DNA of 15,652 bases from an uncultured bacterium (GCA_965372535.1 CBDVCR010000071.1:1-15652); one strand, 5' to 3'. Shown: positions 1,068 to 15,652, counted from the first letter of the stretch. The notes: generated by a model not told the origin, from the letters alone. A program made the numbers and translations.

Positions 1068-2072
1068 CTATTCTTCCTCTTCGTCTTTCTCAAGTGGCAA
1101 TCCGACGGACTTCATCGTCTTCCTGAAATCGTCCTCATACTCTTCATATGTATGGAACTTGACGTCGGGATTCCACGGGTTAATGTGCCTTTTCTTGCGG
1201 CTGTTGTTTATCATGTTTCTGGTCGGACTCATAAAGACCCCTCCCATGTGCATGAGCTTGCTGAAGGGGAAGTAGATGAGGAGCACGCTGACCAGCAACA
1301 GGTGCATGTAGAATAAGTAGCCTATCCCCTCCGGTGCCGCGGGGGTGAAAGAAAACAGCCCGTTTATCAGCTCCTTGACCTTGGGCACGTCCACCTTGCT
1401 TATGTACCTCATCAGGACCCCGGTGACGGCTATGCCAAGGATGAGGAACAGGGGGAAGTAGTCCGCGGGGAGGGAGATTACCTTCAGCTGCGGGATGACC
1501 ACCCTGCGGAGGAAGAGGTACGTCACGGCTATTACGATAACCGCGTCGGTCATATAGAACGTGGGAAGGGTCAGCTGTAAAAACCCGTCAAGCCCCTCGA
1601 CCCAGTGGACGAAGAACGGCACCGGATCGACGAAAAGCCTGAAGTGCCTGACCACTATGAAAAGAAACGACCAGTGGAAGGCCAACCCCGCCATCCACAG
1701 CCATTTGCTCGAGCCGTAGACGAGCCTCGGCCCTTCCATCGCGTCCGCCTTGGTGTTTTTGAACAGCGAACGGAACAGGAACACCTCCAGGAGCATCCTG
1801 CCGATGACGCCCAGGGCACTTGAAGGGTTGTCGAGCTTGTTCTGCTTTATCCACGGCAGCGACTCCTGCTGGCCGCTGGTCGTGGGGATGCGGAAGGGAA
1901 CGGGCACGCGGGCCCACTGAACAAGGCGATACGCAAAGCCCAGCACAAAGACGGCAACCGCCGCATACGGCACGACGATGCCTAATAAGTATTGCAGGCC
2001 TGCGTTCTCCCCTCCGACGTAAGCGAGCGCAACAAGCACAATCACCATTATAAGGGAAAACATCATACCCAT
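1068..2072 (-). CDS. dsrM: DsrM, NarI-like dihaem cytochrome b membrane subunit of the Dsr complex
   Basis: 334-aa ORF with several hydrophobic helices and spaced His residues (AFHWSF, VRHFRLF, FVHWVEG, YMHLLLV, KLMHMGG) typical of NarI/HdrE-type haem b proteins. It lies immediately upstream of dsrK. GAGG sits 8 nt before the ATG. Confidence 0.85.
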   Translation of the reverse strand: MGMMFSLIMVIVLVALAYVGGENAGLQYLLGIVVPYAAVAVFVLGFAYRLVQWARVPVPFRIPTTSGQQESLPWIKQNKLDNPSSALGVIGRMLLEVFLFRSLFKNTKADAMEGPRLVYGSSKWLWMAGLAFHWSFLFIVVRHFRLFVDPVPFFVHWVEGLDGFLQLTLPTFYMTDAVIVIAVTYLFLRRVVIPQLKVISLPADYFPLFLILGIAVTGVLMRYISKVDVPKVKELINGLFSFTPAAPEGIGYLFYMHLLLVSVLLIYFPFSKLMHMGGVFMSPTRNMINNSRKKRHINPWNPDVKFHTYEEYEDDFRKTMKSVGLPLEKDEEEE

Positions 2073-2126
2073 CAGATTCTACCTCGCTTCATGCGTTGCG
2101 TTAAATGCTTCATAGCCCCAGGAACC

Positions 2127-2642
2127 CTATCCATGGCTCTCCTCCCGTCTGTCGAGCAAGTTGGCCTTTCTGAGCAGCATGTAAAGGTTCCGCTTCATCT
2201 CATCTTCCTTGACCCTGTTGATGGCCTCGCGGCACTCCGTATAGATGTCAAAGGAGACGAGAGCCATCTCCTCGACGATGGAATCCAGCCGTTCGAGCGC
2301 CCCGGCGTTTCCGACTGACCCCTCTTCGTACACCTCTTTTACGGCCTTTTTAAGAAGGAACGCGAATGACACGGCCCGGGAGGGAGGGAAGTCCTGTACA
2401 GCCCGCATCCTGACGAAAGGCTTAAGGCAGGCCGAGAGCCGCTCCGGGTCGGCCCCATCCTGGAGATCCCCAAGCACGGAATCCACCATTTCGGAAATGG
2501 CGTACCCAATTGGATTGGCGAAACGGTCTTTCTTTTTCCTGAGAAACGCTTCGGAGTCTGCGGGATAAGTCTCTACAATCAATTGATGCCATTTCCGGCG
2601 GATTTCCTCTTTGTTCAGGACTAAAAACTCTTTAAATTCCAA
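2127..2642 (-). CDS. dsrT: RsbRD_N-domain protein, DsrT-like (small conserved protein found upstream of dsrMK)
   Basis: 171-aa ORF using a TTG start at 2642..2640, preceded by GGAGGAG at 8 nt spacing. The sequence ...RKWHQLIVETYPADSEAFLRKKKDRFANPIGYAISEMV... matches my memory of the RsbRD N-terminal family (the d-F-x-N-P-v-G motif). Its position between dsrC and dsrM fits DsrT. The symbol is assigned from memory and context, not from a search. Confidence 0.55.
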   Translation of the reverse strand: MEFKEFLVLNKEEIRRKWHQLIVETYPADSEAFLRKKKDRFANPIGYAISEMVDSVLGDLQDGADPERLSACLKPFVRMRAVQDFPPSRAVSFAFLLKKAVKEVYEEGSVGNAGALERLDSIVEEMALVSFDIYTECREAINRVKEDEMKRNLYMLLRKANLLDRREESHG

Positions 2643-2693
2643 TATCGAAACTCCTCCCCTTACCTTTTTCGAGCCGCGCGACCGCCAACGTAA

Positions 2694-2734
2694 GGCCGCG
2701 GATAAAGGCCGCGGTACGTCCTTTATCCGCGGCC
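2694..2734 (-). terminator. Perfect 15-bp stem-loop between dsrC and the dsrT-like gene (attenuator, partial terminator or mRNA stabiliser)
   Basis: GGCCGCGGATAAAGG (2694-2708) and CCTTTATCCGCGGCC (2720-2734) are exact reverse complements separated by an 11-nt loop. The structure lies 17 nt downstream of the dsrC stop. No U-tract follows on either strand, so it is not a textbook intrinsic terminator. Confidence 0.4.
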
Positions 2735-2750
2735 GTCAGTGCCCTGTGTC

Positions 2751-3086
2751 TTATACGCAACCCGTGGGCTTCGGAAGTCCCGCATACCTGCAGGCCTGCT
2801 TCGCAGGGCCGCCGGGATAGAGCTCGTAGAGGTACTTGGTGTTGCCCTTTTCGGGGCCCATCACCTTGCCTATCTCCTTGACGAGTATCTTGATCATCGG
2901 GGCAATCTGGTACTTCTCGTAGTATTCCCTGAGGAAGTTGATGACCTCCCAGTGGGCATCGGTCAGGCTAATGCTGTCCTCGTTGGCAAGCTCCTGGGCA
3001 AGTTCCTTGCTCCAGTCATCGAGGTCTACCAGATACCCGTCGTCATCGACTTCAATCTGCTTTCCCTGAAAATCCATTGTCGGCAT
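2751..3086 (-). CDS. dsrC: DsrC (TusE/DsrC/DsvC family) with both redox-active C-terminal cysteines
   Basis: 111-aa ORF ending ...PAKQACRYAGLPKPTGCV. The penultimate Cys and a second Cys ten residues upstream mark a bona fide DsrC rather than TusE/RspA. The internal HWEVINFLREYY motif is present. A strong GGAGGAG RBS lies 7 nt upstream of the ATG. Confidence 0.92.
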   Translation of the reverse strand: MPTMDFQGKQIEVDDDGYLVDLDDWSKELAQELANEDSISLTDAHWEVINFLREYYEKYQIAPMIKILVKEIGKVMGPEKGNTKYLYELYPGGPAKQACRYAGLPKPTGCV

Positions 3087-3523: not shown

Positions 3524-4942
3524 TCAATCGACCCTCATGAAATAGCCGCCCCTCCGGGTATCCCCCCACCCCTTGAGGTCCCCTGTCACGGCATGCACCC
3601 CGCCGAAGTAAACCTCTTTTTCCCGCCACGGGTTAAGAGGGTATTTCCCCCGGACAGCGCGCAGGGCGTCCTCGCCGAAGCCCGGCTCCAACTGCAGCAC
3701 CCCCTCGTCGTCCAGGTGCATCCTCGGGGCCTCGACCGCACGGGCCGCGTCCATCCCCCTGTCCAGGAGGTTATGGATAACCTGAAGCATCGCTGTCTTA
3801 ATCCTCTTGCTCCCGCCGCTTCCGAGCACCGAGTGGATTTCCCCGTCCTTCTTTATAATTGTGGGAGACATCATGGAGCCCACCCTCGCCCCAGGCACGG
3901 TGGTGAAGAACCCGTGGGGGAAGAGGTCGTCCTCGCCCATCATGTTGTTGAGCATGACACCCGTATCCCCGAGAAAATGCCCGGAGTTCGAGCCGTTTGA
4001 CGAGGTCATTGAGACGGCGTTCCCCGCCCCGTCCACCACGCTCACATGCGTGGTGCCCGCGGCCCCCTGCCTTTCCCTGTTCATCCTCGCCATGGTTTCC
4101 GCCAGCAGCAGGCAGGCCTCCGCCTCGTCCATCCGCTCAATCTCCTCATTTTTAAGAAGCGAGAAGGCCGTCTCAAGCAACGCGCCGCCGAAGGAGGGAG
4201 GGGGATTAAAAAGCATCTCAAACCCCCTGTACGCGCACGAAAGCGGCCTTCTCTTTCTCACTTCGTACTCCCGCAGGTCCCTTGCCGTAACGCGCCCGCC
4301 GCCAGGTCTTAACTGCTCCTCAAGCCGGTGGGCGCCGCTTCCGTAAAACGCGTCAATCCACGCATCGGGCGACCTCAAGCCCAGGAACTCACCAAACAGG
4401 GGGTTATAGAGCCTCCCGCCGCTTTCCTTGCCGCCGAAAATCTCCTTTCCATAGCCGGTAACCGTGAGGATGGGCAAGAGGATTTTAATGAGATAGCTCT
4501 GAAGCCCGTCTAACTCGACCCCCTGCTCAAGGTACCTGAGGGCCGGCCGTATGATGTCCCGGATGTCCATGGAGGCGAGCTCCCGGTGAAACCTTAAAAG
4601 CCCCTTGAGCATTCCAGGCGCCGCCACGGAGGCCGTGCCGATATGGAAGACCTGTACGGTGGACTTAAACCGTATCTCCACGGGTTCGAGCACGGGTGTT
4701 TCCGAAAAAGACGCCCCCCTGCCCGGTGCGTCCACGAAGAAATCATAGACCACGTCCTCGCCCCGGTCGGCGACATGGGCCATGAGAAACCCCCCGCCCC
4801 CGAGGCTTGAGAGGACGGGCTCCGCCACCACGGAGGCGAATCCCGCCGCAACAGCCGCGTCGAAGGCGTTTCCGCCCCTCCTGAACATCTCGCACGCCGC
4901 CCCGGTGGTAAGGGGATGCCCGGAAGCCGCCGCCCCTTTCAT
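3524..4942 (-). CDS. ggt: Gamma-glutamyltransferase family protein (Ntn hydrolase), no signal peptide visible
   Basis: 472-aa ORF. The N-terminus GHPLTTGAACEMFRRGGNAFDAAVAA matches the GGT N-terminal signature. GTTHVSVVDGAGNAVSMTSSNG matches the autoprocessing/nucleophile Thr region, and GSGGSKRI matches the C-terminal oxyanion region. The protein starts directly with the catalytic domain and has no hydrophobic leader. Confidence 0.85.
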   Translation of the reverse strand: MKGAAASGHPLTTGAACEMFRRGGNAFDAAVAAGFASVVAEPVLSSLGGGGFLMAHVADRGEDVVYDFFVDAPGRGASFSETPVLEPVEIRFKSTVQVFHIGTASVAAPGMLKGLLRFHRELASMDIRDIIRPALRYLEQGVELDGLQSYLIKILLPILTVTGYGKEIFGGKESGGRLYNPLFGEFLGLRSPDAWIDAFYGSGAHRLEEQLRPGGGRVTARDLREYEVRKRRPLSCAYRGFEMLFNPPPSFGGALLETAFSLLKNEEIERMDEAEACLLLAETMARMNRERQGAAGTTHVSVVDGAGNAVSMTSSNGSNSGHFLGDTGVMLNNMMGEDDLFPHGFFTTVPGARVGSMMSPTIIKKDGEIHSVLGSGGSKRIKTAMLQVIHNLLDRGMDAARAVEAPRMHLDDEGVLQLEPGFGEDALRAVRGKYPLNPWREKEVYFGGVHAVTGDLKGWGDTRRGGYFMRVD

Positions 4943-5040
4943 CTACCGGCCGGTTAGTTTCTCAGCAGACATTGAATCCTTCCAAAGCCCCCTGCACTGG
5001 GATTCCGAGGCATTTACATGTCTGCTTGCCGGCGGTCCCG

Positions 5041-6153
5041 TCAGCAAGCGTAAAACCCCTCCCGGACGCAGGCTATCATGGACTTGAAATCCCTTTCCTC
5101 CCTGTATAGCCTTTGTTGGGCGTGAGCCCCGGTGCCGTTTTCAAGTATTTCCCCTATTGCACCCATGTACCCGAGCCCCCCGAGTTCTCCGGACTGCCGC
5201 TCTACCAGGTGTAAGAGTTCCTGTACCGCCTCCCGGATGGGGACCCTTTTTGCGGTCACGGGGTTTACGAATATCCCGTCAAGGCCGTAGCGCGCCGCCT
5301 GCCACTTGTTGGACCTCAATATCTGCATCTGCACCCTTGCCTCGGGGTGAAACTGCACGTTTGAAAGCGTGACCACAAGGGCCTGGATAAGCGCGGTAAG
5401 AGCCAGAATCTCGGCGTAACGGCAGGGCATATCACATACCCGTACCTCTACGGTGCCGAACTCCGGGTGCGGACGCACGTCCCACCAGAGGTCCTTTACG
5501 GACTCTATTATCCCTCCCATCTGAAGCAGCGAGGCCATGCGACAGAACTCGTCCCAGTTTTCGAGGGAATCCGGCAGGCCCGCAAGCGGCAGGGCCTCAA
5601 AGAGCTTTGTCCTGTAGGAGTAAAGCCCCGTGTCCTCGCCCAGGTAGAAAGGAGAGGAGGTGGAAACGGCAAGCAGGAGGGGCAGGTACATCCGGATAGT
5701 GTTGTTTATCCTTATTGCCCGCTCCGGAGAGTTGACCCCTATGTGCACATGCAAGCCCTGGCTTATAAACCTTCTGCCCACAAGCTGAAGGTCGTCCATA
5801 ACCCTGACGTATCGCGGGCTGCTGGTGACGTTTTCCGCCGAGCCCCCCTCGAAGGGGTGGAGGCTTGCGGAGTAGAAGACCGCGCCGAAGTTTTTTAATA
5901 GTCCCTCAAGGTAGGAGAGCGTACTCCGCAGGTCGGCGTCCACCTCCTTGACGTCGGCGCAGATACGGGTGTTTACCTCTATCATGGAACGGATGAACTC
6001 TTCCTTTATGCGGTCCGTATAGGCGGGGTCCATTGAAGACAGCACCTCGGGCGCGATGTTCTTAAACCAAAGAGTTCCGGCGTCCAGGAGCTGAAGCTCG
6101 AGTTCCACCCCGATGGTGGGCTCGGGGCTTGAGTTAAACCTTAACTCGGGCAC
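5041..6153 (-). CDS. Carboxylate-amine ligase, YbdK / glutamate-cysteine ligase family 2 (GCS2)
   Basis: 370-aa ORF. PTIGVELELQLLD near the N-terminus, GLHVHIG, and the overall length are typical of YbdK-type GCS2 enzymes. Its start overlaps the upstream M20 gene by 20 nt. Confidence 0.8.
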   Translation of the reverse strand: MPELRFNSSPEPTIGVELELQLLDAGTLWFKNIAPEVLSSMDPAYTDRIKEEFIRSMIEVNTRICADVKEVDADLRSTLSYLEGLLKNFGAVFYSASLHPFEGGSAENVTSSPRYVRVMDDLQLVGRRFISQGLHVHIGVNSPERAIRINNTIRMYLPLLLAVSTSSPFYLGEDTGLYSYRTKLFEALPLAGLPDSLENWDEFCRMASLLQMGGIIESVKDLWWDVRPHPEFGTVEVRVCDMPCRYAEILALTALIQALVVTLSNVQFHPEARVQMQILRSNKWQAARYGLDGIFVNPVTAKRVPIREAVQELLHLVERQSGELGGLGYMGAIGEILENGTGAHAQQRLYREERDFKSMIACVREGFYAC

Positions 6154-7369
6154 GTTTTTCCTTCAGGCTTTCGACGGCCCTCCTTACGGCGGCGTCGAAA
6201 AAGGCCGCACCGACGCGTATCACGTCCTCATCGAAGTTGAAGTTCGAGCTGTGGGCCGTGGCGGACTCCCCGCCCCTGCCCACTGCGCCGAAGCGTACGA
6301 AACAGCCGGGCACTTCCTTAAGATAGTAGGCGAAATCCTCCCCTCCCATGCTGGGCTTTACCAGGTTGATGAACTTCTCCCTGCCGAGCAGTCCCTCCGC
6401 CGCTTCCCGTGCGAGCAGGTAGCATTCGGGATGGTTAACCACCGGAGGGTAACCCTCGAAAATATTCACCTCAATCCTTGCGTCATGGAGCGATGCCATC
6501 CCCTCGGCGGTCTTCTGAATTCTTTTGAGCACGTCTTTTCTGGTCTTTCCATCGGTATTGCGTACTGTGCCCTTGAGGACGGCCTCGTCGGCCACCGCGT
6601 TGTAAACAGTGCCGGCATGGAGGCTCCCGACGGTTATCACCGTGGGGTTCAGGGGGTTGATGCTCCTTGAGATGATGTTCTGAAGGGCCATCACAAAAAG
6701 GCTCGCCACCACGACTGCGTCCACGGTTTCGTGGGGCCGGGCGGCGTGCCCCCCCCGTCCGAGTATCCTTATCTCGATGGCGTCGGTATAGGAGGAGTCC
6801 ACGTCCGTCCGTATGGCGATTTCTCCCAGTTTGAACGCGCCGTCGATATGTCCGCCGAATATCATGTCCACGCCGTCGAGCGCGCCCGCCTCTATCATGG
6901 AGCGTGCGCCTCCGCTTCCCTCCTCGGCGGGCTGAAAGAGCAGTACCACGTTGCCGGGCGGCGGGGATTTCCTGAGAAGCTCCGCGGCGCCGAGCACGAT
7001 GGCCACATGGCCGTCATGCCCGCAGGCGTGCATGTAGCCTTTTACCCTGGAGGCGTAGGGGAGACCTGTCTTCTCCTCGATGGGCAGGGCGTCCATGTCC
7101 GCCCTTAGGGCCACGGTGGGCGCCGGGGGACCGTGGTTGTCGATGCGGGCCACTATGCCGGTCTTTGCGATGCCGCGCCTGTAGGGGATGGAAAGCCTCT
7201 CCAGATACCTGGCGATGGCCTCGCCGGTCTTTTTCTCCTTGAAGGCGGGCTCGGGCCAGCGGTGAATTCTCCTCCTGAGACTCACAAGGCGTTTAAACGT
7301 CCTGTCGTCCATCAAGCGCTTAAAGGGCATAATAAATTTTAGCACATGCGGGGGGATTAAAAGAGGCAC
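6134..7369 (-). CDS. M20-family (M20D-type) amidohydrolase / N-acyl-amino-acid or dipeptide hydrolase
   Basis: 411-aa ORF with LRRRIHRWPEPAFKEKKTGEAIARYL, MHACGHDGH and FQPAEEG metal-binding motifs. The start is uncertain: GTG at 7369 or ATG at 7330 (MPFKRLMDD...), and neither has a clear SD. Confidence 0.8.
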   Translation of the reverse strand: MPLLIPPHVLKFIMPFKRLMDDRTFKRLVSLRRRIHRWPEPAFKEKKTGEAIARYLERLSIPYRRGIAKTGIVARIDNHGPPAPTVALRADMDALPIEEKTGLPYASRVKGYMHACGHDGHVAIVLGAAELLRKSPPPGNVVLLFQPAEEGSGGARSMIEAGALDGVDMIFGGHIDGAFKLGEIAIRTDVDSSYTDAIEIRILGRGGHAARPHETVDAVVVASLFVMALQNIISRSINPLNPTVITVGSLHAGTVYNAVADEAVLKGTVRNTDGKTRKDVLKRIQKTAEGMASLHDARIEVNIFEGYPPVVNHPECYLLAREAAEGLLGREKFINLVKPSMGGEDFAYYLKEVPGCFVRFGAVGRGGESATAHSSNFNFDEDVIRVGAAFFDAAVRRAVESLKEKRARVKV

Positions 7370-8311: not shown

Positions 8312-9481
8312 TTACCCCCCTTTTTCGGGCGCGTACCGAAACACCGCGGCCAGCGGCGCATCCACCGGCATTTTTTCGCGGGCAACAGCGTAAACAGTCC
8401 CGCGGTTTAGAAGCGTTCGGACCGCGGCCAGGTCCAGGAGGTCCTCCTTTTCAGGACCTTCTTCGGGTTCAAGGCTCACCGTGTCTGTTTCGGGGTCGTA
8501 TCTGCCCCACTCTTGCTCGCCAGAAGCGGCAAACAGCACATCTACACTTCCGGCGGAAGCGGCCGGGACAACGACGTTTATGTCCGTAGAAGCATGCCCG
8601 GTGCCCAGAAGCTCCCTGCAGCGCGCCGCAGCCTCCTCGCGGGCCTTGAGAAAAAGGGGCTCCACCACGGCCCATGCCTCCTTGTGCAGACGTTCCGCGC
8701 CCGCCCTTTCCGGGTTGCCCGCCACCCCCCTGTCAACGAGATAGGGGTATGTGTTCGCCTCCCGGTATATCGCGTTGATATACTCGACGCCCGCCAGGAC
8801 CAGGAACGAGTGTTCTTCCTTGAGAAGTTCGTGCAGGCCCCTGTCTACATGGCGGCAGAATCTCAGTACAGCGTCCTTTTCGTCATCCACGCCGACACCG
8901 TGGCCGTGGAACATGGCGGGCCGCTGCCGCATTCCCCCTCCCGTGCCCGTATGAAACTGGAGCTGTTTCTGAGGGTCGTCGTATTTCAGGGCGTCGGCAA
9001 GGCTTTTCGGTACGTCTTTAAGAGACGCCTCGGCCATGCTGTATCGGGAGCCCTGAAACAACCTGACCCCGTTCTGGCTTAGCGCAAGGAGATAGAATCG
9101 CCCGTCCCCGCTGAACAGGGGGAGCAGCGGCTTGAGGTGGAAACGCCGGCCCGGGACAAGCAGTTCTTCAAAGCTCATGGGAAGACGGTAACGGCGGAAT
9201 TCCCCGGCCGAGGCGAACACGGCCAGCCCATCGCTCCTGTGCTCCCAGAAATCCCTGTCGCCCAACAGCATGTGGCCGGGCCTCAGCATCTCTCCGGCCT
9301 CGGCGGAGCGGAGGCCGCCTTCCAGCAGAAGCCCTTCGGCCCGCGAGAGCAGATTTTTGAACCTTACCGGGTCCTGCTCCGCCCCGCCGCCCGTCCTGTG
9401 CGTGGGCATGTAAATCGATATGCATCGGCCGCCGCTTCCTCCCGCAAGCGCCCTCAGGTCATTGATTCCCAGCATATCCAT
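8312..9481 (-). CDS. Conserved hypothetical protein, probably a bacterial archaeo-eukaryotic release-factor-like (baeRF / eRF1-fold) family member
   Basis: 389-aa ORF with good coding character. The N-terminal CISIYMPTHRTGGGAEQDPVRFKNLL and the central FYLLALSQNGVRLFQG pattern match my recollection of baeRF-family proteins. No search was run, so the family call is tentative. Confidence 0.4.
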   Translation of the reverse strand: MDMLGINDLRALAGGSGGRCISIYMPTHRTGGGAEQDPVRFKNLLSRAEGLLLEGGLRSAEAGEMLRPGHMLLGDRDFWEHRSDGLAVFASAGEFRRYRLPMSFEELLVPGRRFHLKPLLPLFSGDGRFYLLALSQNGVRLFQGSRYSMAEASLKDVPKSLADALKYDDPQKQLQFHTGTGGGMRQRPAMFHGHGVGVDDEKDAVLRFCRHVDRGLHELLKEEHSFLVLAGVEYINAIYREANTYPYLVDRGVAGNPERAGAERLHKEAWAVVEPLFLKAREEAAARCRELLGTGHASTDINVVVPAASAGSVDVLFAASGEQEWGRYDPETDTVSLEPEEGPEKEDLLDLAAVRTLLNRGTVYAVAREKMPVDAPLAAVFRYAPEKGG

Positions 9482-9596: not shown

Positions 9597-9883
9597 GACT
9601 CATAACCCGGATATTGCACGAGTCCGGTTTGCCTCGGACGCAAGGCGCGCGGGACGCGAAGGAGGACATCCATGATAAGTAAACGAGCATCGCACCTTGC
9701 GCGGTGCTCGTCTTCGCGGGCGGGGCATCTCTGTCAATCACTGCTTGAGCGCCCCGCGCTCTGAGGCGACCTCTCACTGACGGAAAACGGCGCCGTCTCG
9801 ATGTTTGCTGCAGGGGGCCGAGGCATATTTTTTTTACCTCGATAGATTTGTTATACTTATTCATCTTACTTAAGGAGTTTCGA

Positions 9884-11275
9884 ATGTCCCGGTTAAAACT
9901 CATAGGTTCAGCTCTGACGGTATGCGCTCTGGTGCTGATGCGGCCCGCTCCCGGTGCGGCGATAAGCGAAACGAGCGACGAATATTCCTTCAAAATCACT
10001 GTCGAAACCCACCTCGGGGAGCACCTCAAGTCCGTGCTCACGGACATCGCCGGCTCCGACGACATCATCGTCATAGTCAACGCGGAGGTGGAAACCGACA
10101 AGAAGAGCAAGAAGAAAAAGCGTAAAAAACCCCAGGGCCTCGTGCTTCCCGGCGTCCCGGTTAAGAAGGAAATCGGCAAGAGCGCGGACGAGGCAATGGC
10201 CATTGCAAGCATGGTGCGGAGGCTTGAGGTGGAAATCCTGGTGGACAACGACATTTCCGAGTCCCTCACCCAACTCGCCCACGACATCGCCATCTCCGTC
10301 ATCGGATACGACCCCGACCGGGGCGACAGGCTCACCATCAGGCGAATTGAGTTCGGAAACAAGGGATTTAAGTGGGCCTCGATGTTTTACCCGCCCCACC
10401 TGTACTGGCTTGTTACGCTTATAGCGGGCGGCTTCTTCCTGGTGTCGGCGGCCATGTTCTTCATGGACCCGTTCAAGAAACTGCCGCCCGCCGTGGGAAA
10501 CGTAAACTGGGACGTCATACTCAAGAACCCGGAGAATAAGATGTTCGGCGGAGGCCCGGCAGGCGCGCCGGCAGCGGCCCGGACAGCCAAGGCGGAAACC
10601 ATGGCCGGCAGCGGCGACCCGTTGCCCTTCGGGTTCATAAAAGACGGCCACGTCCCCGACCTGGCCTTCCTGCTTTCGGAAAGCCCTGCCGGGGACATCG
10701 CCATCGTGGCCAACTACCTGGAGCCGGACCTCTCCGCAGGGCTTCTTGAGTCCTTCCCCCCGGAGACCTATGCCGAGGTCGTACTCAAGCTTAAGGACAC
10801 CGCCGAGGCCGGCCCCGAAAGGGTGAAAGCCCTGGAGGAGTCCATCAGGGAGCGCCTGGACTACGTGGTGGGCGGCGACGACAAACTTGCTTCCGTCCTC
10901 AACCTTGCCGAGGGCGAGGTCAGGGACAAGGTGCTCCAAAAGCTCGAAGAGGAGGACCCGGAGGCCGTCGCCCGCCTGAGGCCGAAGATAAAGACCTTCG
11001 AGTCCATGCTGAGGTCCATGAAGCCCAATGTCCTTCAGGCCCTTTTCAGGCAGCTCGACACCACGGTGTTCGCCCGCGTCCTGAAGTCCTCCTCGGCCGA
11101 CATACAGACCAGGGTGCTGGAGTCGCTGAGCGAAGGGGCCGCCGAACTCCTGCGGGAGGAGATGGAACTGAGCCGTCCCCTGAGCGCCGCGCGCCTTAAG
11201 AAGGAAAAGCAGAACATCGCGGCCACCGTCATGCGGATGGCGAGTGTGGGCGTCATAGAGGAGGAAGACATCTGA
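9884..11275 (+). CDS. Membrane-anchored FliF-like (ring-building motif + TM) / FliG-like (middle + C-terminal torque domain) fusion protein
   Basis: The start is placed at ATG 9884 (AAGGAG 6 nt upstream), not the TTG at 9848 in the track. It begins with an N-terminal hydrophobic leader, MSRLKLIGSALTVCALVLM. The periplasmic part ends VRRLEVEILVDND...ISVIGYDPDRGDRLTIRRIEF, which resembles the FliF RBM3 end (G-f-x-x-x-RGD-x-l-x-V-x-x-x-x-F). That is followed by a TM helix, LYWLVTLIAGGFFLVSAAMFFM. Next come FliG_M-like LAFLLSESPAGDIAIVANYLEPDLSAGLLESFPPETYAEVV and FliG_C-like GGDDKLASVLNL...LEEEDPEAVARLRPKIKTFESML...LQALFRQLDTTVFARVLKSSSADIQTRVLESLSEGAAELLREEMELSRPL...VGVIE. Confidence 0.75.
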   Translation: MSRLKLIGSALTVCALVLMRPAPGAAISETSDEYSFKITVETHLGEHLKSVLTDIAGSDDIIVIVNAEVETDKKSKKKKRKKPQGLVLPGVPVKKEIGKSADEAMAIASMVRRLEVEILVDNDISESLTQLAHDIAISVIGYDPDRGDRLTIRRIEFGNKGFKWASMFYPPHLYWLVTLIAGGFFLVSAAMFFMDPFKKLPPAVGNVNWDVILKNPENKMFGGGPAGAPAAARTAKAETMAGSGDPLPFGFIKDGHVPDLAFLLSESPAGDIAIVANYLEPDLSAGLLESFPPETYAEVVLKLKDTAEAGPERVKALEESIRERLDYVVGGDDKLASVLNLAEGEVRDKVLQKLEEEDPEAVARLRPKIKTFESMLRSMKPNVLQALFRQLDTTVFARVLKSSSADIQTRVLESLSEGAAELLREEMELSRPLSAARLKKEKQNIAATVMRMASVGVIEEEDI

Positions 11276-11276
11276 G

Positions 11277-12059
11277 ATGGACTTTATGACCGTTTTCGGC
11301 CTTCTGATGGGCGGCGCGACCATGTTCTTCGTCATGGCCGAGGGGAATATCCTGAACATGATAATCAACCCCCTGGCTTTCATCCTGGTGTTCGGAGGCA
11401 CTTTCAGCGCCACGCTCATCTCCTATCCCTGGGACATCGTAAGGCGGATAATCCCTTCCCTGAAAACGATGTTCGTAAAAACCGGAAACGGCAGCGAGCA
11501 CCGGGAGGACCTCATAGAGCAGATTACCAGGCTGGCCGAGAAGGCCCGCCGCCAGAATATCGAGAGCCTTCAGGAGGACGTGGCTTCCATAAACGACGGT
11601 TTTCTGGCCTACGGCATCCAGATGGTGCTGGACGGCCTCGAGCACGAAGTCGTGAAGGACAACCTGGAAAAGGAGATACTTTTCACTCAGCGCTCCCGGC
11701 GCAAGGTCAGCGACGCGTTCCGCACCATGGCCACCTTAGCGCCCATTTTCGGGCTGCTGGGGACCCTCATCGGCGTGGTGCAGGTGCTCAGGAACCTCTC
11801 GGACCCCACCAGCATGGGCGAGGCCATGGCCATCGCCATAACCACCACCTTCTACGGCATTTTCGCGGCCAATTTTCTCTTTCTGCCCGCCGCCATAAAG
11901 CTCAACGAGAACAACGAAGACGAAGTGATGAACTGGCAGATTGCGGCCGAGGGCATATTGTCCATCCAGCAGGGCGACCTCCCGCTGATAGTGAGGAAAA
12001 AACTCAACGCTTTCCTGCTTAAAAGCCTCGGCCGCGAAGGTGGGACCCGAAAAGACTGA
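11277..12059 (+). CDS. motA: MotA/PomA-family stator channel protein
   Basis: 260 aa with a four-TM layout. The cytoplasmic loop KARRQNIESLQED has an R..(8)..E spacing like MotA R90/E98. TM3/TM4 carry the conserved prolines (LAPIFGLLGT, FLFLPAAIKL). The ATG lies 1 nt after the upstream stop. Confidence 0.85.
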   Translation: MDFMTVFGLLMGGATMFFVMAEGNILNMIINPLAFILVFGGTFSATLISYPWDIVRRIIPSLKTMFVKTGNGSEHREDLIEQITRLAEKARRQNIESLQEDVASINDGFLAYGIQMVLDGLEHEVVKDNLEKEILFTQRSRRKVSDAFRTMATLAPIFGLLGTLIGVVQVLRNLSDPTSMGEAMAIAITTTFYGIFAANFLFLPAAIKLNENNEDEVMNWQIAAEGILSIQQGDLPLIVRKKLNAFLLKSLGREGGTRKD

Positions 12060-12724
12060 TGAAGCTGTTCATCCCGGAAAACAGGAGGCGTGGGGGCGCG
12101 CTTTGGCTTGTCATATTTTCCGACCTTTCGACGAACCTCATGCTCTTTTTCCTTATTCTCTTCGCCATGACCAGGATGAGTGCCGCCGAGCGCGAGACGG
12201 TGATAGAGGGCATGCAGCGGGCGACCTCCAACCAGGCCGCCCTTGAGGAGCGGGCTTTGAAAAAACAGAAGGAAAAAAACGCCATAAGGACGCTCGAGGA
12301 CACCATTGCCTACGGCAGGCTGAAGAAATACACGAACCTCTCCGTGGGCGACGATAAAATCAAGCTGACCATAGAACTGCCGTTTTTCTTCGCCACCGGG
12401 AGCGCGGAAATCAACGCCGCCGCCCGTCCGGCCCTCAAAAGCCTCGTGATCCCCATTAAAGAGTTCCCCAACGACATAATCATAGAGGGCCATACCGACA
12501 ACGTGCCCATGACTGCGGGCCACAGGTACGGCTCGAACTGGGAGCTCTCGGTGGCCCGCGCCGTCAGCGTTATAAACTTCTTCAAGGAAAAGGGGGTCAA
12601 CCCCGCAAAGCTGGTCTCGGGCGGCTACGGGGAGTACCACCCGGCGTTTCCGAACGACACCCCCCGGAACAGGGCGAAAAACAGGCGCATAGAAATCACC
12701 ATTCTCCGGCAACCTGCGGTGTAG
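12059..12724 (+). CDS. motB: MotB/PomB-family stator protein with OmpA-like peptidoglycan-binding domain
   Basis: The start overlaps the motA stop (TGATG). The single N-terminal TM, WLVIFSDLSTNLMLFFLILFA, carries the conserved channel Asp. The C-terminal region IIIEGHTDNVP...SNWELSVARA...NRRIEI is a canonical OmpA/MotB domain. Confidence 0.85.
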   Translation: MKLFIPENRRRGGALWLVIFSDLSTNLMLFFLILFAMTRMSAAERETVIEGMQRATSNQAALEERALKKQKEKNAIRTLEDTIAYGRLKKYTNLSVGDDKIKLTIELPFFFATGSAEINAAARPALKSLVIPIKEFPNDIIIEGHTDNVPMTAGHRYGSNWELSVARAVSVINFFKEKGVNPAKLVSGGYGEYHPAFPNDTPRNRAKNRRIEITILRQPAV

Positions 12725-12730
12725 GGCAAA

Positions 12731-13381
12731 GTGGCGCTCCACCGAAAAGTACTCAACATCCTCGTAGGGGGAAGGCCGGAGCCCATGAGCTGGCTGCTCC
12801 CCCACAGCACCCTTATGCTCGTCCTGATGATACTGTTCGTGGCCCTGTTCAGTTACTCCTACCTGAACTCGGTCGAGTACGAGTCCGCCCTTGTAGACCT
12901 GGAGACGCCGAAGGCCGAGTTGAGCCCTTCCAAAAGGGAAATCCACCTCGCCAAGAGCATCAGGAAGTTCATCGAAGACATGGGCATGGAGGGCGTCGCC
13001 AGCGTTAACGTGACTCCCCACGCCATAAAGCTCAAGCTTTCAAGCCCCGTGATGTTCGAAAGCGGGAGCGCCGAGCTTACGCCCTTCATCATGCCCATGC
13101 TTGTGGAACTCCTCAGGCACCTGAGGGACATGGAAAACACCATAATCGTGGAGGGACACACCGACAACGTGCCCATACACAGCGCCCTTTACCGCTCCAA
13201 CTGGGAGCTCTCGGCCGCAAGGGCCTTCAGCATAATATATTTTTATATAAAGAGAGACATCGAGCCGGAACGCCTCATCGCCCACGGCTACGGAGAGCAC
13301 AGGCCGTTTTACTCCAACGAGAGCGAGTTCGGGCGCGCCATGAACCGGCGGATAGAGATAACAATCGTAAGGGGAGGATAA
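12731..13381 (+). CDS. Second MotB/OmpA-like protein, with a TM segment that lacks the channel Asp
   Basis: 216 aa with a GTG start 6 nt after the motB stop; an alternative ATG lies at 12785 (MSWLL...). The TM is WLLPHSTLMLVLMILFVALF and has no acidic residue. The C-terminal region IIVEGHTDNVP...SNWELSAARA...NRRIEI is an OmpA-like domain. Confidence 0.8.
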   Translation: MALHRKVLNILVGGRPEPMSWLLPHSTLMLVLMILFVALFSYSYLNSVEYESALVDLETPKAELSPSKREIHLAKSIRKFIEDMGMEGVASVNVTPHAIKLKLSSPVMFESGSAELTPFIMPMLVELLRHLRDMENTIIVEGHTDNVPIHSALYRSNWELSAARAFSIIYFYIKRDIEPERLIAHGYGEHRPFYSNESEFGRAMNRRIEITIVRGG

Positions 13382-13382
13382 A

Positions 13383-14684
13383 GTGAAGGCAGCACTTGCA
13401 GCCGTATTAACAATGCTCCTGCTTTCCTGGGCGGCGCCGGCCGCCACGGCCCGGGAGACAGGGGGAAAAGCCGGGAAGGCGCGGGACATGGCCGTGAGCC
13501 TCTTCAACCAGGGCAAATACGAGGAGGCCCTTCCACTGTTGAAAGAGATTCTCTCGGAAAACCCCGACGACAAGGTCGCACAGAGGTACCTGCTTATTTA
13601 CAATCAGCAGGTCGTCGAGCCCTACTGCAGGCAGGCGGCCCAGTCCTACTTTGCCGGAGACTACCCTTCCGCGGTCACCCAGTGGGAGAAAATCCTCCGG
13701 ATAAACCCCAACGACATGCGCGTCCGGAAGCTCCTGGACAGGACGATTACCGTCTCCAACCAGGAAGCCCTGGACTCCCTCTACTCCAACGTGACCACGC
13801 TTATGAAGGACAGTAGATACGCCCTGGCAGCGGGCGAACTCGAAAAAATCCTCCAGATAAGGCCCCTTGAGCAGCGGGCGCATGAACTGCTGTCCATAGT
13901 GCGCCGCACCCTTACGGACAGCGCCGTTAAAGAGCTATACGAAAAAGCCAACCAGTATTTCGAGCAGAAGGAATACGACCTCGCCATCGAGCAGTGGCGG
14001 AAGATACTGGAGGTAGACCCGGGCCAGGACCTGGCCTCCCGGCAGATTGCCACCGTGCACCGCCGAAAGCTCGACAAGATGTACACCACAGCCGAACGGC
14101 TCTACCTCGAAGGCGACCTCGCCGCCTCCCGCGACCTCTACAGCAATATTCTTTCCGAAAACCCCACCGACCTTTCCATTAAAAAAACCATAGACCGCCT
14201 CAACGGGACGATAAACATCGTGCCCAGGCTTACTGAGGAGGGGAAGGTCTGGGACGTGCTCAGAAAGGGCGTCGCCCACCACGTCTCGGAGGACGGAAAC
14301 CCCAGGGTGGCCGTTGCCGCCGCCTGGTATGCCGTGCAGCTTGAGCCGGAAAACGCCACGATACTGGCGCTCATGGACCACATGGAGCGGGAAAACTTCG
14401 CCGTCGTCCGCACAATGGCGCCCCCGGTGGACGAGATGAACGTCGTGGACCAGTACCTTTTCACCGCCCTCAACAACATCTACGAGGGCCGCTACGACCT
14501 GGCCGTCCAGGAGTGCGGGATTGTGCTCGAACTCGAGCCGGAAAACATCCTGGCCATGAAGCGCCTGGGCTCGGCCTACTACGCCCTCGGCAGAGCGGGC
14601 AAGGCCAAGAAAGCCTGGCAGAAGGCGCTCAGGCTCTCGCCCAACGACAGCGAACTCAAGGGCTTCATAAAACAGCTCCGGTAA
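13383..14684 (+). CDS. Secreted tetratricopeptide-repeat (TPR) protein
   Basis: 433 aa. The GTG start lies 1 nt after the upstream stop and GGGGAGG lies upstream. The signal peptide is MKAALAAVLTMLLLSWAAPAATA. Repeated 34-aa style A-x-x-Y/F...A...P-N/D helices run throughout (e.g. GKYEEALPLLKEILSENPDD, GDYPSAVTQWEKILRINPND, KEYDLAIEQWRKILEVDPG, GRAGKAKKAWQKALRLSPND). Confidence 0.8.
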   Translation: MKAALAAVLTMLLLSWAAPAATARETGGKAGKARDMAVSLFNQGKYEEALPLLKEILSENPDDKVAQRYLLIYNQQVVEPYCRQAAQSYFAGDYPSAVTQWEKILRINPNDMRVRKLLDRTITVSNQEALDSLYSNVTTLMKDSRYALAAGELEKILQIRPLEQRAHELLSIVRRTLTDSAVKELYEKANQYFEQKEYDLAIEQWRKILEVDPGQDLASRQIATVHRRKLDKMYTTAERLYLEGDLAASRDLYSNILSENPTDLSIKKTIDRLNGTINIVPRLTEEGKVWDVLRKGVAHHVSEDGNPRVAVAAAWYAVQLEPENATILALMDHMERENFAVVRTMAPPVDEMNVVDQYLFTALNNIYEGRYDLAVQECGIVLELEPENILAMKRLGSAYYALGRAGKAKKAWQKALRLSPNDSELKGFIKQLR

Positions 14685-14874
14685 GGGGCTCGCCGCCCAG
14701 GAGGTCGATTTCCGCGACGCCGATTTCAAGGAGGGTTTCAGCGAGCTTTTCAAAATCCCCGATTTCGATATCCGCATGTGCCTCTACTCCCCGGGTAAAG
14801 CAGAAACCGCACGCCCGGTCGCAGCGCAGGGTGGGGTAGAGCTGGACGAAACGGGGCCTGCCGGGCGTTGTCAT
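14665..14874 (-). pseudogene. Radical SAM enzyme N-terminal stump (69 codons), truncated
   Basis: The ORF reads MTTPGRPRFVQLYPTLRCDRACGFCF...EIDLLGGEPL. It has the CxxxCxxC cluster motif and the GGEPL motif of radical SAM proteins, but stops 5 codons later, inside the 3' end of the convergent TPR gene. It is far too short for a TIM-barrel radical SAM domain, and there is no SD. Confidence 0.6.
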
Positions 14875-14899
14875 GTGTTATTATCGTGAAAGGCATCGC

Positions 14900-14935
14900 A
14901 AAAAGTAAAAGGGTTGCGGGAGCAACCCGCAACCC
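14900..14935 (-). terminator. Strong rho-independent terminator (minus strand), directly downstream of the tRNA-end fragment
   Basis: GGGTTGCGGG (14911-14920) and CCCGCAACCC (14926-14935) form a perfect 10-bp GC-rich stem with a 5-nt loop. On the minus strand the stem is followed by TTTTACTTTTT (14910..14900). Confidence 0.65.
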
Positions 14936-14947
14936 CTTGATATCTTA

Positions 14948-14969
14948 TGGTGGCGCTGAGCGGGCTCAA
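14948..14969 (-). other. tRNA 3'-end-like fragment (T-loop remnant + T-stem + acceptor strand + discriminator + CCA); putative island attachment-site remnant
   Basis: The minus strand reads TTGAGC-CCGCT-CAGCGCC-A-CCA, which parses as part of a T-loop, a 5-nt T-stem 3' strand, a 7-nt acceptor 3' strand, a discriminator and an encoded CCA. The expected 5' partner strands (AGCGG, GGCGCTG) are absent upstream, so it is not an intact tRNA. Confidence 0.45.
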
Positions 14970-15062
14970 GGAACTCTTGAACCACAAGACGCTGAATATG
15001 ACTCTCTGATATGCTTATCCGGCTCCGAGCCACAAGGTCAAGTGTGGGGGTGCTGAATTATG

Positions 15063-15068
15063 TATAAT
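15063..15068 (+). promoter_or_regulatory. TATAAT -10 box only 5 nt before the GIY-YIG ATG (possible leaderless transcript)
   Basis: The sequence is TGTATAATTTTACATG. The hexamer is perfect, no SD lies between it and the ATG at 15074, and no convincing -35 is present. Confidence 0.25.
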
Positions 15069-15073
15069 TTTAC

Positions 15074-15652
15074 ATGAAGGAAATTACTCTATATGGTCCA
15101 TATTCAATTGTAAGTTCTGATCATGACATACTTTCTGATTGCCCATACTCTCAAAAGGCGGGGATATATTTGTGGGCTGTGAAAATGTTTTCAAATTATT
15201 TCAGAGTAACATACATCGGAGAGACCGGTACTTCATTTTATAAAAGAACCAAAGAGCATGTAATTCAAACGTTGGGGGGTAATTATCAAATATGTGATCC
15301 CGATGCAATGCAAAGAGGTGAATCTATAGTTGTATGGAATGGTTTATGGAGAAAAGGTTATAGGGACAAGTTTCCTGAGTTTTTGAGAAGATATGAGGGT
15401 ATTGCTACAGTGATAAAAGGTGCTCTCAGTGTCCAAAATATCTTTGTAGCTCCTATGGATGTGGATTCAAGGACACGTAAGCGTATCGAAGGTGCTTTAG
15501 CCTTTGCTGTAAGAAATAATAAAGATGCATCGTCTTTGCTTCCCAAAGACATTCGATACTTCAAGAATAAAGAAGATGAGAGTCCAATCGCTATAAGCAT
15601 CGAAGCACAATCGAAAATTGAAGGGCTGCCAAGGCAAATAATATGTGTGTAA
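15074..15652 (+). CDS. GIY-YIG nuclease-superfamily-like protein in low-GC, probably foreign DNA
   Basis: 192-aa ORF ending with TAA at the window edge. AGIYLWAV...RVTYIGETGTSFYKRTKEH supplies the GIY ... YIG pair and the following conserved Arg. A later RIEGALAF could supply the catalytic Glu. GC in hand-counted lines is 32-43%, against 60-70% for the rest of the window. Confidence 0.55.
   Translation: MKEITLYGPYSIVSSDHDILSDCPYSQKAGIYLWAVKMFSNYFRVTYIGETGTSFYKRTKEHVIQTLGGNYQICDPDAMQRGESIVVWNGLWRKGYRDKFPEFLRRYEGIATVIKGALSVQNIFVAPMDVDSRTRKRIEGALAFAVRNNKDASSLLPKDIRYFKNKEDESPIAISIEAQSKIEGLPRQIICV

Follow-up and report, generated by a model that had tools for sequence, protein, structure and literature searches.

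Can the rotor and stator of a flagellar motor exist as a unit of their own, apart from the rest of the flagellum? This question is raised by a gene at positions 9884..11275 (+) of a 15,652-nucleotide (nt) stretch of DNA from an uncultured bacterium (GCA_965372535.1, CBDVCR010000071.1:1-15652; the whole stretch is called the window below). The gene encodes a 463-residue putative rotor subunit with the domain order FliF(RBM3-TM)-FliG(M+C), in which a ring-building motif (RBM) and a transmembrane (TM) helix like those of FliF are joined to the middle (M) and C-terminal (C) domains of FliG, and it sits beside genes for flagellar-type MotA and MotB. Pfam, PDB profiles and Foldseek searches with two AlphaFold models agree that the protein is a natural FliF-FliG fusion without the FliG N-terminal domain (FliG_N), as a first-pass annotation made from the sequence alone had proposed. 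On balance we favor the view that the five genes of the operon to which it belongs (9884-14684; the fusion, MotA, two MotB paralogues and a tetratricopeptide repeat [TPR] protein) encode a self-contained, flagellar-type, ion-driven rotor-stator module without the rest of the flagellum.

Domains of the fusion protein

The first-pass annotation had related the periplasmic part of the protein to FliF, and each search applied to that part bore this out. Residues 27-160 (9962..10363; coordinates written with two dots are those of the window and lie on its plus strand) form a FliF RBM3-like ring-building domain of the order alpha-beta-insert-beta-alpha-beta, which an AlphaFold model of the whole fusion (38 homologues as input, mean predicted local distance difference test score, pLDDT, 75.6) resolves into helix 31-56, strand 61-71, insert 72-108, strand 109-121, helix 126-140 and strand 149-155. 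Pfam YscJ_FliF_C (PF08345) matched residues 97-157 (E 1.7e-7), reaching the end of the profile, and it matched 18 of the 18 family members tested; the NCBIfam fliF model touched residues 31-85 (model positions 235-290). When a profile of the isolated domain, made from 18 members, was compared with the PDB, FliF matched across the whole domain (E 7.7e-6), and Salmonella FliF aligned in two stretches, 237-282 and 404-438, which flank a large central insert that we take to be the beta-collar. A Foldseek search with an AlphaFold model of the isolated domain returned FliF RBM3/collar chains as its top 18 matches (E 9e-7 to 2e-4, TM-score ~0.6), followed by OsmC/Ohr (8.5e-3), PrgK (0.018) and SpoIIIAG (0.019), and the model of the full fusion matched FliG-MC structures first (E ~1e-9) and FliF RBM3/collar chains next. 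SctJ/PrgK/EscJ of injectisomes and SpoIIIAG of sporulation have a common alpha-beta-beta-alpha-beta ring-building fold, and SpoIIIAG likewise has an insert in its hairpin, but their Foldseek and profile matches were at least three orders of magnitude worse than those of FliF RBM3, and none of these proteins is fused to FliG or linked to MotAB. We rejected SctJ and SpoIIIAG as the source of the periplasmic domain, both being far weaker than FliF RBM3 by either method.

As judged from profiles and models, the periplasmic region of the fusion is a single RBM of the RBM3 type. It had been described at first as two alpha/beta segments; its alpha/beta character stands, but the segments are the two halves of one RBM3 and not two units. 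The mature periplasmic part is only ~140 residues long, RBM1 and RBM2 are absent, and the collar is cut to a 37-residue insert (72-108), compared with ~120 residues between the two matched RBM3 stretches of Salmonella FliF. This Lys-rich insert (10097..10207) interrupts the beta1-beta2 hairpin at the site that the beta-collar takes up in FliF, has a pLDDT <50 in both models, and carries the motif LPGVP (residues 88-92, 10145..10159), which is classed as invariant in the family alignment (Pro in 181 and Gly in 177 of 183 fusion family members). The insert may act as a mini-collar within a ring or as a site at which a partner docks. Close to the end of the domain is an RGD motif (residues 146-148, 10319..10327; R in 156, G in 158 and D in 165 of the 183 fusions) that aligns with the RGD of Salmonella FliF 423-438. 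The sequence around it, DPDRGDRLTIRRIEF, aligns with that whole stretch of Salmonella FliF (FSDKRGDTLNVVNSPF), which is the end of RBM3 just ahead of the TM helix, and the FliF-like signature that had been noticed before the TM helix is thereby accounted for. LPGVP and RGD are the most conserved features of the FliF-derived part across the 183 members.

The sole internal TM helix, HLYWLVTLIAGGFFLVSAAMFFM (residues 172-194, 10397..10465), is followed by KK on the cytoplasmic side, which is consistent with a mature protein that would cross the membrane once, with RBM3 outside and FliG-MC inside. The hydrophobic leader of the first-pass annotation is present at residues 1-26 (9884..9961), with a hydrophobic helix at residues 2-18 of the AlphaFold model, but it is probably a cleavable signal peptide and not TM1 of FliF, because the leaders of relatives end in A-x-A immediately ahead of the conserved N-terminus of the mature domain (EVNDDY/SE..Y). 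In the window's protein, cleavage would likely follow an A-x-A-like site, between PGAA and ISE. On the other side of the TM helix lies a disordered, Gly/Ala/Pro-rich cytoplasmic linker (residues 195-247, 10466..10624; pLDDT <50), again as first described, which occupies the place of the FliF tail and FliG_N and varies among relatives in length and sequence. No Pfam match to FliG_N (PF14842) was obtained in the fusion, where just ~53 disordered residues lead from the TM helix to the FliG middle domain, and the reported absence of FliG_N is upheld.

The C-terminal half corresponds to FliG-MC. The FliG middle (ARM_M) domain spans residues 248-328 (10625..10867), with Pfam FliG_M (PF14841) at residues 262-328 (E 1e-9), and contains a degenerate EHPQR motif (LSESPAGD, residues 264-271), in agreement with the earlier reading of ESPAG in the place of EHPQ. 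A Gly-Gly linker, G330-G331 (10871..10876), which is invariant in an alignment of close relatives, joins it to a full FliG C-terminal domain at residues 353-459 (10940..11260; PF01706, E 6.3e-18). Thermotoga FliG-MC (1lkv) aligned to residues 248-458 (E 5e-23), and Foldseek matched the FliG structures 1qc7 and 8ucs_H with a root-mean-square deviation of 1.5-1.9 A. MgtE_N, which the first-pass annotation had named as a possible confusion, was rejected as an alternative identity for this half: on the same stretch it reached 3.6e-8 against 6e-18 for FliG_C, the significant PDB matches were all FliG, and there were no MgtE chains among the PDB matches at E <= 1.

In sum of likeness, the protein shares with FliF and FliG of Salmonella, Vibrio and Thermotoga the RBM3 fold, the beta1-beta2 insert and an RGD-bearing last strand before the TM helix, and with canonical FliG the ARM_M domain, the Gly-Gly linker and FliG_C with its torque helix, acidic pair and K264 equivalent. 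Unlike the flagellar rotor, it is one polypeptide and not two, it lacks RBM1, RBM2, the FliF tail and FliG_N, and its N-terminus is a probable signal peptide and not TM1; unlike canonical FliG, it has lost the equivalents of the EHPQR His and Arg, of R281 and of R297, and it has no flagellar genes nearby. The scores for the equivalog families are well under the cutoffs: the NCBIfam fliG equivalog (TIGR00207) scored 74.2 bits against a cutoff of 226.7 and the fliF equivalog (TIGR00206) 28 bits against 129.75, and the protein departs from the FliF equivalog in having one internal TM helix and a C-terminal tail replaced by the fusion. By these measures the fusion lacks defining features of both equivalog families and is a member of neither.

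The operon and its rotor-stator interface

The five genes follow one another with junctions of 1, -1, 6 and 1 nt. One nt past the stop codon of the fusion begins a gene for a 260-amino acid (aa) MotA (11277..12059; MotA_ExbB 1.9e-24, MotA_N 5e-8), whose best PDB match was 9lu9_A (E 7e-46; the B subunit in that entry is a Paenibacillus sp. TCA20/E. coli chimera), with PomA, C. sporogenes MotA and B. subtilis MotA among the further matches. P156 and P204 of this protein align with the conserved AP..G and F.P channel-proline motifs of solved MotAs, and although its equivalog score is 173 bits against a cutoff of 340, its sequence is clearly that of a flagellar-type MotA. The start of MotB1 (221 aa, 12059..12724; MotB_plug 1e-10, OmpA 9e-18) overlaps the MotA stop by 1 nt, and its TM aspartate, D22, is conserved in all orthologues. 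MotB2 (216 aa, 12731..13381; MotB_plug 7.6e-6, OmpA 7e-17) is a paralogous B subunit, with flagellar MotB and PomB as its best PDB matches. It has Ser26 at the position of the channel Asp, and this residue is S or G in all Nitrospirota orthologues (Gly in locus L017; loci of relatives are given L numbers here) and Asp in the loci of a second clade, described below, that we call Elusimicrobiota-type. Because MotB2 of that clade retains the Asp, we conclude that paired B subunits are ancestral to the operon and that the loss of the Asp was a later, selected change. The operon ends with a 433-aa periplasmic TPR protein (13383..14684), matched by several TPR families and in the PDB by generic or designed TPR proteins only; it has a signal peptide with AxA sites at N-termini and no lipobox Cys, and it was found in every operon locus that was long enough, at 287-637 aa.

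In the canonical motor, MotA R90 pairs with FliG D289 and MotA E98 with FliG R281, as given in PMC7564593 and PMC12505986. To place these residues, 183 full-length fusions and 9 canonical FliGs, including that of Thermotoga, were aligned to one profile, and E. coli FliG and MotA numbering was derived by aligning the sequences to those of Thermotoga, C. sporogenes and 9lu9, with the help of the cited papers and of the E. coli sequences. In the fusion of the window, the torque helix SEGAAELLREEMELS (residues 416-430, 11129..11173) has G418 at the position of R281 and E425/E426 at those of D288/D289; S434, just past the helix, stands at the position of R297, and K401 is the equivalent of K264. 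The replacement of R281 by Gly and the retention of the acidic pair as EE had both been read correctly from the sequence at first, and the replacement is a property of the family, with Gly in 165 of the 183 fusions and Arg in 9 of the 9 canonical FliGs. The position of R297 holds S, P or T in the fusions, against R or K in canonical FliGs. At the position of D289, 164 of 183 fusions have Glu, as canonical FliGs do; the D288 equivalent is E or Q (91 each) in the fusions and E or D in canonical FliGs, and the K264 equivalent, K in canonical FliGs, is K or R in 147 fusions. Both glycines of the Gly-Gly linker are common to the fusions (176/183 and 175/183) and all canonical FliGs, and the MFxF hinge, kept in canonical FliGs, is partly retained (F/L at the last position). 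The E-H-P-Q and the distal R of EHPQR are invariant in the 9 canonical FliGs; the window has S-P-A-G and K, and the His and Arg are outside the five commonest residues at their columns among the 183 fusions.

The stator side has a matching pattern. The equivalent of MotA R90 is R91, which lies beside R92 and is kept in 12 of 13 operon MotAs (Leu in L022), and the equivalent of E98 is Q99, a position filled by Q, A or S in every one of the 13 operon MotAs and by Glu in solved stators; E96, three residues before Q99, is E in 11 of the 13 and D and Q in the other two. The first-pass annotation had seen an R...E pair with the R90/E98 spacing in this MotA, and this did not hold: R92 and E100 are indeed spaced by 8, but E100 is not conserved. 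Its broader suggestion, that part of the electrostatic interface is conserved, applies to R91/R92 and E425/E426; the equivalents of E98 and of R281/R297 are lost. By alignment, rotor and stator have each lost their residue of one of the two charge pairs and have kept the other pair, and the loss of the same pair on both sides is our strongest sequence-level argument that MotA and the FliG-like domain of the fusion are cognate.

All five genes have ratios of nonsynonymous to synonymous substitution rates (dN/dS) between 0.07 and 0.26 when compared with L026, which carries an orthologue 86% identical to the fusion. The values are 0.26 for the fusion, 0.20 for MotA, 0.11 for MotB1, 0.16 for the TPR protein and 0.07 for MotB2, the lowest of the operon despite its lost Asp. 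Because all five genes are under purifying selection, we regard the operon as functional and not as a relic or artefact.

Upstream of the fusion gene, a Shine-Dalgarno sequence, AAGGAG (9872..9877), lies 6 nt ahead of ATG 9884, and an extended -10-like box, TGTTATACT (9849..9857), can be read from the sequence ~27 nt 5' of the start codon. An alternative TTG start at 9848 falls within this box, and on account of this and of the strong AAGGAG, ATG 9884 is likely the start codon. The TGTTATACT box is also found 5' of the orthologous gene in L026, L019 and L021, which represent two phyla, and it is a candidate promoter element. No sigma-54 -24/-12 boxes were found in 16 upstream regions of the operon. 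The presence of the TGTTATACT box without a sigma-54 box suggests housekeeping-type transcription rather than a flagellar sigma cascade.

Family, distribution and genomic neighborhoods

The domain order of the fusion, for which the first-pass annotation had proposed a database search, defines a large family. A first homologue search found 38 full-length members of 456-488 aa, the named ones from Nitrospirae/Nitrospirota metagenome-assembled genomes (MAGs), and when one genome per species was scanned, 15 loci emerged, of which 14 are in Nitrospirota/Nitrospirae/Nitrospiria MAGs and one is in an uncultured bacterium. The five-gene order is kept in the 13 Nitrospirota genome loci that are long enough (L005 ends inside MotA and L004 inside the TPR gene), although the flanks of the 15 genome loci differ from those of the window, and the same order is found in L026 and L027. 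In the second clade (L019, L021, L022 and L023), of which one relative is labelled Elusimicrobiota by NCBI, the five-gene operon occurs again, and its flanking genes differ between clades. A profile search over 1.84 billion cluster representatives (50% identity) returned 285 representatives at E <= 1e-30; nearly all of the best 150 match the profile end to end, and lengths among the best 150 listed are mostly 430-735 aa. Distant members retain the signal peptide, LPG(V/I)P, RGD, the TM helix and FliG-MC. In total, >180 full-length members from at least three phylum-level groups share the architecture, and the five-gene operon was seen in loci of the Nitrospirota and Elusimicrobiota types, so the fusion is not a single oddity and belongs to a large family with a dedicated, conserved operon.

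A third kind of locus, which we call type B, is represented by a Candidatus Firestonebacteria MAG and by Elusimicrobia MAGs; the loci L020:9152-17518, L024:3958-13542 and L025:7642-15990 come from the Firestonebacteria MAG and from metagenome contigs. Two fusion paralogues stand in tandem there, and one of them carries TPRs at its cytoplasmic C-terminus. Their neighbors are genes for a small AAA ATPase and for an uncharacterised protein of 1000-1270 aa, a CheW-CheY-CheA(-MCP-CheC) cluster points in the opposite, divergent direction, and MotAB does not adjoin. A fusion with C-terminal TPRs is also present at L018:5570-14145, where the order is response regulator, 521-aa TPR protein, fusion, 830-aa uncharacterised protein and Roadblock/LC7 protein; the host of this locus has PorV and type IX secretion genes.

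Public annotations of the family are 'hypothetical', 'FliG', 'FliG C-terminal domain-containing' and 'tetratricopeptide repeat protein'. No description of a natural FliF-FliG fusion family or of this operon was found in the literature covered by a limited search, which returned engineered fusions only, and the accessible part of a survey of MotAB homologues (PMC12505986) does not mention such a fusion. As far as that search reached, the fused rotor-stator operon is a previously undescribed rotor-stator of the flagellar type. Genes for flagellar export, rod, hook or switch were absent from all loci with per-gene Pfam tables, which cover the flanks to ±8-10 kb or the contig end. For the remaining Nitrospirota loci, annotation covered the conserved neighbor families of L006, among which none is flagellar.

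The neighbors themselves differ from group to group. In 13 Nitrospirota loci (L003-L016; examples are L006:14859-18044 and L006:4839-9618), a ~490-aa multihaem cytochrome with nine Paired_CXXCH stretches follows the TPR gene on the same strand after a gap of ~50-60 nt and is itself followed by two c7-type cytochromes. MtrC-like cytochromes and an RCC1/Lcl_C beta-propeller protein lie upstream, and a sigma-54 response regulator and histidine kinase lie downstream. The cytochromes could be a functional tie to extracellular electron transfer or mere synteny; the window, L026 and L027 are without this whole set of neighbors. In the Elusimicrobiota-type clade (L021:15212-22190, L022:14371-21386, also L023), the operon is flanked convergently by a conserved set of genes for a ~630-aa uncharacterised protein, a FecR-like protein, a further uncharacterised protein of 600-680 aa and a giant one (10167 or 6434 aa). 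The giant protein, which in L022 has beta-helix and Kelch domains, recalls the giant adhesins moved by other ion-driven motors. In L014 and L016, on contigs of 187 kb and 2.35 Mb, frameshifts occur in several operon genes simultaneously, and because they affect all genes of those loci they are probably sequencing errors and not pseudogenes.

In the window, the genes upstream of the operon are on the minus strand and unrelated to it: a baeRF/hibernation-factor-like gene, a rhodanese, an M20/GCS2/GGT cluster, and DsrC and NarI-like genes. The divergent neighbor of the fusion gene (8312-9481, -) encodes a bacterial eRF1-like protein of baeRF family 7/3/6, which scored 130 bits against the NCBIfam 'ribosome hibernation factor' model, below its cutoff of 330; elsewhere, a baeRF-like gene adjoins the operon in L026 only. 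A gamma-glutamyl cluster of GGT, a GCS2 carboxylate-amine ligase and an M20 amidohydrolase occupies 3524-7369 (-). Within 1068-3086 (-), genes for DsrC (2751-3086, E 1e-46) and for a membrane protein resembling NarI/DsrM (1068-2072) point to a sulfur-metabolising host. Synteny with L026 stops right past the TPR gene, where the GC content falls to 0.49 (14685-15652) from ~0.59. This last part of the window contains a GC-rich hairpin scored as a minus-strand terminator (14908-14938) and an open reading frame (15074-15649) whose TAA stop (15650-15652) is the window's last codon and which had no Pfam, NCBIfam or PADLOC match.

A proposed machine and the alternatives

The domain identities of the encoded proteins, the conservation of the operon, the residue patterns on both partners and the purifying selection on all five genes are direct observations, and they can be assembled into a mechanism. 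Sec export and cleavage of the signal peptide would leave the fusion as a single-pass protein, N-out and C-in, and its periplasmic RBM3 domains could then polymerise into a ring with one TM helix per subunit. In the flagellum, RBM3 builds the 33-34-fold S-ring of FliF and thereby determines C-ring stoichiometry. PMC7355467 describes the RBM3/collar half of FliF as a stable scaffold with a 33-34-fold symmetry that matches that of the C ring. The FliG M and C domains, on their flexible linker, would form a cytoplasmic torque ring, with the covalent link standing in for the joint between the FliF tail and FliG_N, and since the EHPQR residues that bind FliM have been lost, a FliM/FliN switch is not to be expected. 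The stator would be a MotA pentamer around a MotB dimer, its OmpA-like domains anchored to peptidoglycan. Ions conducted via MotB1 D22 would turn the MotA pentamer, which would drive the ring, with torque passing through the retained half of the interface, MotA R91/R92 against E425/E426 of the rotor. Stator units are themselves described as rotary motors, with MotA spinning around MotB (PMC12704724). Since MotB2 is conserved yet lacks the Asp in Nitrospirota, it may heterodimerise with MotB1 or form non-conducting, anchoring units. Output would be taken at the periplasmic face of the ring, for which the LPGVP/Lys-rich insert is the likeliest contact, possibly engaged by the TPR protein; TPR domains typically bind short peptides, which makes this protein a candidate partner of the insert.

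A fuller version of this reading, which we put forward tentatively and with less confidence than the existence of a rotor-stator module as such, is that the operon encodes a free-standing, non-flagellar rotary machine, in which a ring of fusion proteins is spun by MotA-MotB1-MotB2 without an export gate, rod, hook, filament or switch, delivers its output in the periplasm or envelope via the LPGVP insert and the TPR protein, and is widespread in uncultivated phyla (Nitrospirota, Elusimicrobiota, Firestonebacteria and others). For the module that we favor, we infer ring formation, rotation, a MotB heteromer, the role of the TPR protein and the absence of an axial structure. Several points weigh against such a module. 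The AlphaFold models are of monomers, with pLDDT <50 in the insert, so that ring and rotation stand as inference; the flanks that were read extend 10 kb, which leaves room for a possible role within a normal flagellum; and a ring without RBM1/RBM2, export gate and rod has no obvious load, which makes its output a guess. We know of no characterised precedent for a stator with a single protonatable Asp per B dimer, and the type B members, beside chemotaxis genes without adjacent MotAB, imply that the fused rotor is used in more than one context.

The closest experimental parallel is a deletion fusion of Salmonella, fliFGd-f, in which a covalent junction of FliF and FliG takes the place of the FliF C-terminal tail and FliG_N, as in the natural protein (PMC6445934). 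Cells with this fusion still build flagella, with a torque of 1523 versus 2068 pN nm (PMC6445934), and because torque is still produced, a peptide bond can evidently replace the FliF-tail/FliG_N joint. The engineered protein differs in keeping the whole FliF periplasmic region, EHPQR, FliM/FliN and the full flagellum, and it is impaired and clockwise-biased, whereas the natural fusion is conserved and selected, has its own stator and carries further reductions.

Alternatively, the operon could encode an alternative or accessory rotor-stator set of a canonical flagellum encoded elsewhere in the genome, with the fusion replacing or co-assembling with FliF and FliG, and with MotA, MotB1, MotB2 and the TPR protein forming a second stator with a periplasmic scaffold, as in dual-stator bacteria. 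Some Nitrospirota are flagellated, each part of the set is homologous to a flagellar motor part (the stator has a plug and an OmpA-like domain, and the best matches are MotA, PomA and MotP), and the type B genes adjoin CheA, CheW, CheY, MCP and CheC. MotB-binding periplasmic accessory proteins are also known from real flagella (PMC10954123). We nevertheless consider this alternative unlikely. The fusion is without RBM1 and RBM2, which surround the export gate in FliF, and without the long beta-collar that holds the rod, FliG_N and the FliM-binding residues of EHPQR, so that it is hard to envisage how it would nucleate an export gate, rod or switch. No flagellar gene lies near the operon in the Pfam-tabulated loci, the conserved neighbors in other Nitrospirota loci being cytochromes, the RCC1/Lcl_C protein and a two-component system, and the missing charge pair suggests that both partners are insulated from canonical rotors and stators.

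Somewhat less probable again is a force transducer that does not rotate, in the manner of Tol, Ton or Agl systems. Here the MotAB-type unit would push, via FliG_C, on fusion molecules that act singly or as small oligomers. These would relay conformational work through the membrane to a partner in the periplasm or outer membrane, for instance the TPR protein, and the work could serve upkeep of the envelope, the movement of surface proteins or structures for electron transfer. TolQR, ExbBD, AglRQS, GldLM and ZorAB all combine a unit of the MotA/MotB family with a dedicated partner and work outside the cytoplasm. The order of the genes in the operon (a single-pass protein, an A subunit, B subunits with an OmpA-like domain and a periplasmic TPR protein) follows the outline of tol-pal, and the TPR protein weakly matches the tol-pal YbgF model (1.4e-8, far under the cutoff). 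The multihaem cytochromes of the 13 Nitrospirota loci and the FecR-like and giant beta-helix/Kelch proteins of the Elusimicrobiota-type loci hint at a role in the envelope or at the surface, but their conservation may merely mirror genome relatedness, and the window and L026 are without them. Moreover, the periplasmic domain is a ring-building motif closest to the unit of the FliF S-ring, and the fusion keeps the FliG M-C architecture, the Gly-Gly linker and an MFxF-like hinge, which in flagella serve ring polymerisation. TolA, TonB and GltG-type partners contact their motors through TM helices and not through a FliG_C torque helix. Unlike those of TolQR, ExbBD, AglRQS, GldLM and ZorAB, the A and B subunits here are of the flagellar type, with MotA_N, a plug and an extended OmpA-like domain, and the partner would be contacted via FliG_C. 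Zorya (ZorAB) was also rejected by name: neither MotA nor the fusion matched any PADLOC model, and MotB1 gave only a generic ZorB/MotB match.

Finally, it is very improbable that the operon is left over from a lost flagellum and in decay, or that neighboring fliF and fliG were joined by an error of assembly or a frameshift. Both readings are effectively refuted, for although the two genes are adjacent in flagellar operons and could be fused by a deletion (PMC7355467), and two long-contig MAG loci (L014, L016) carry frameshifts, those frameshifts hit every gene of their loci as sequencing error would, the protein is no simple splice of FliF and FliG (RBM1, RBM2 and most of the collar are gone and a signal peptide replaces TM1), and the size of the family across its phylum-level groups, its family-specific invariant motifs and its dN/dS values speak against decay.

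If the free-standing machine that we tentatively propose is real, it would have split off from the flagellar motor or have survived as a relative of a pre-flagellar rotor-stator module, and it would show that a rotor-stator core can exist and come under selection independently of secretion. Whatever its output, the operon offers a minimal rotor-stator set, of five genes and perhaps of two or three, for heterologous reconstitution, where a flagellum needs >25 proteins. It is also a natural experiment, in which the FliF-tail/FliG_N joint, the FliM site and one charge pair have been removed and the rest is under selection, and it may therefore reveal which contacts are truly needed for torque. 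In the MotB1/MotB2 pair, the subunit without the Asp is the one on which purifying selection is strongest among the five genes, and the pair bears on the number of protonatable sites that 5:2 motors require. Should the hosts prove to lack flagella, the family would represent a new class of rotary machine made from flagellar parts, in which the function of rotor and stator could be tested apart from type III secretion.

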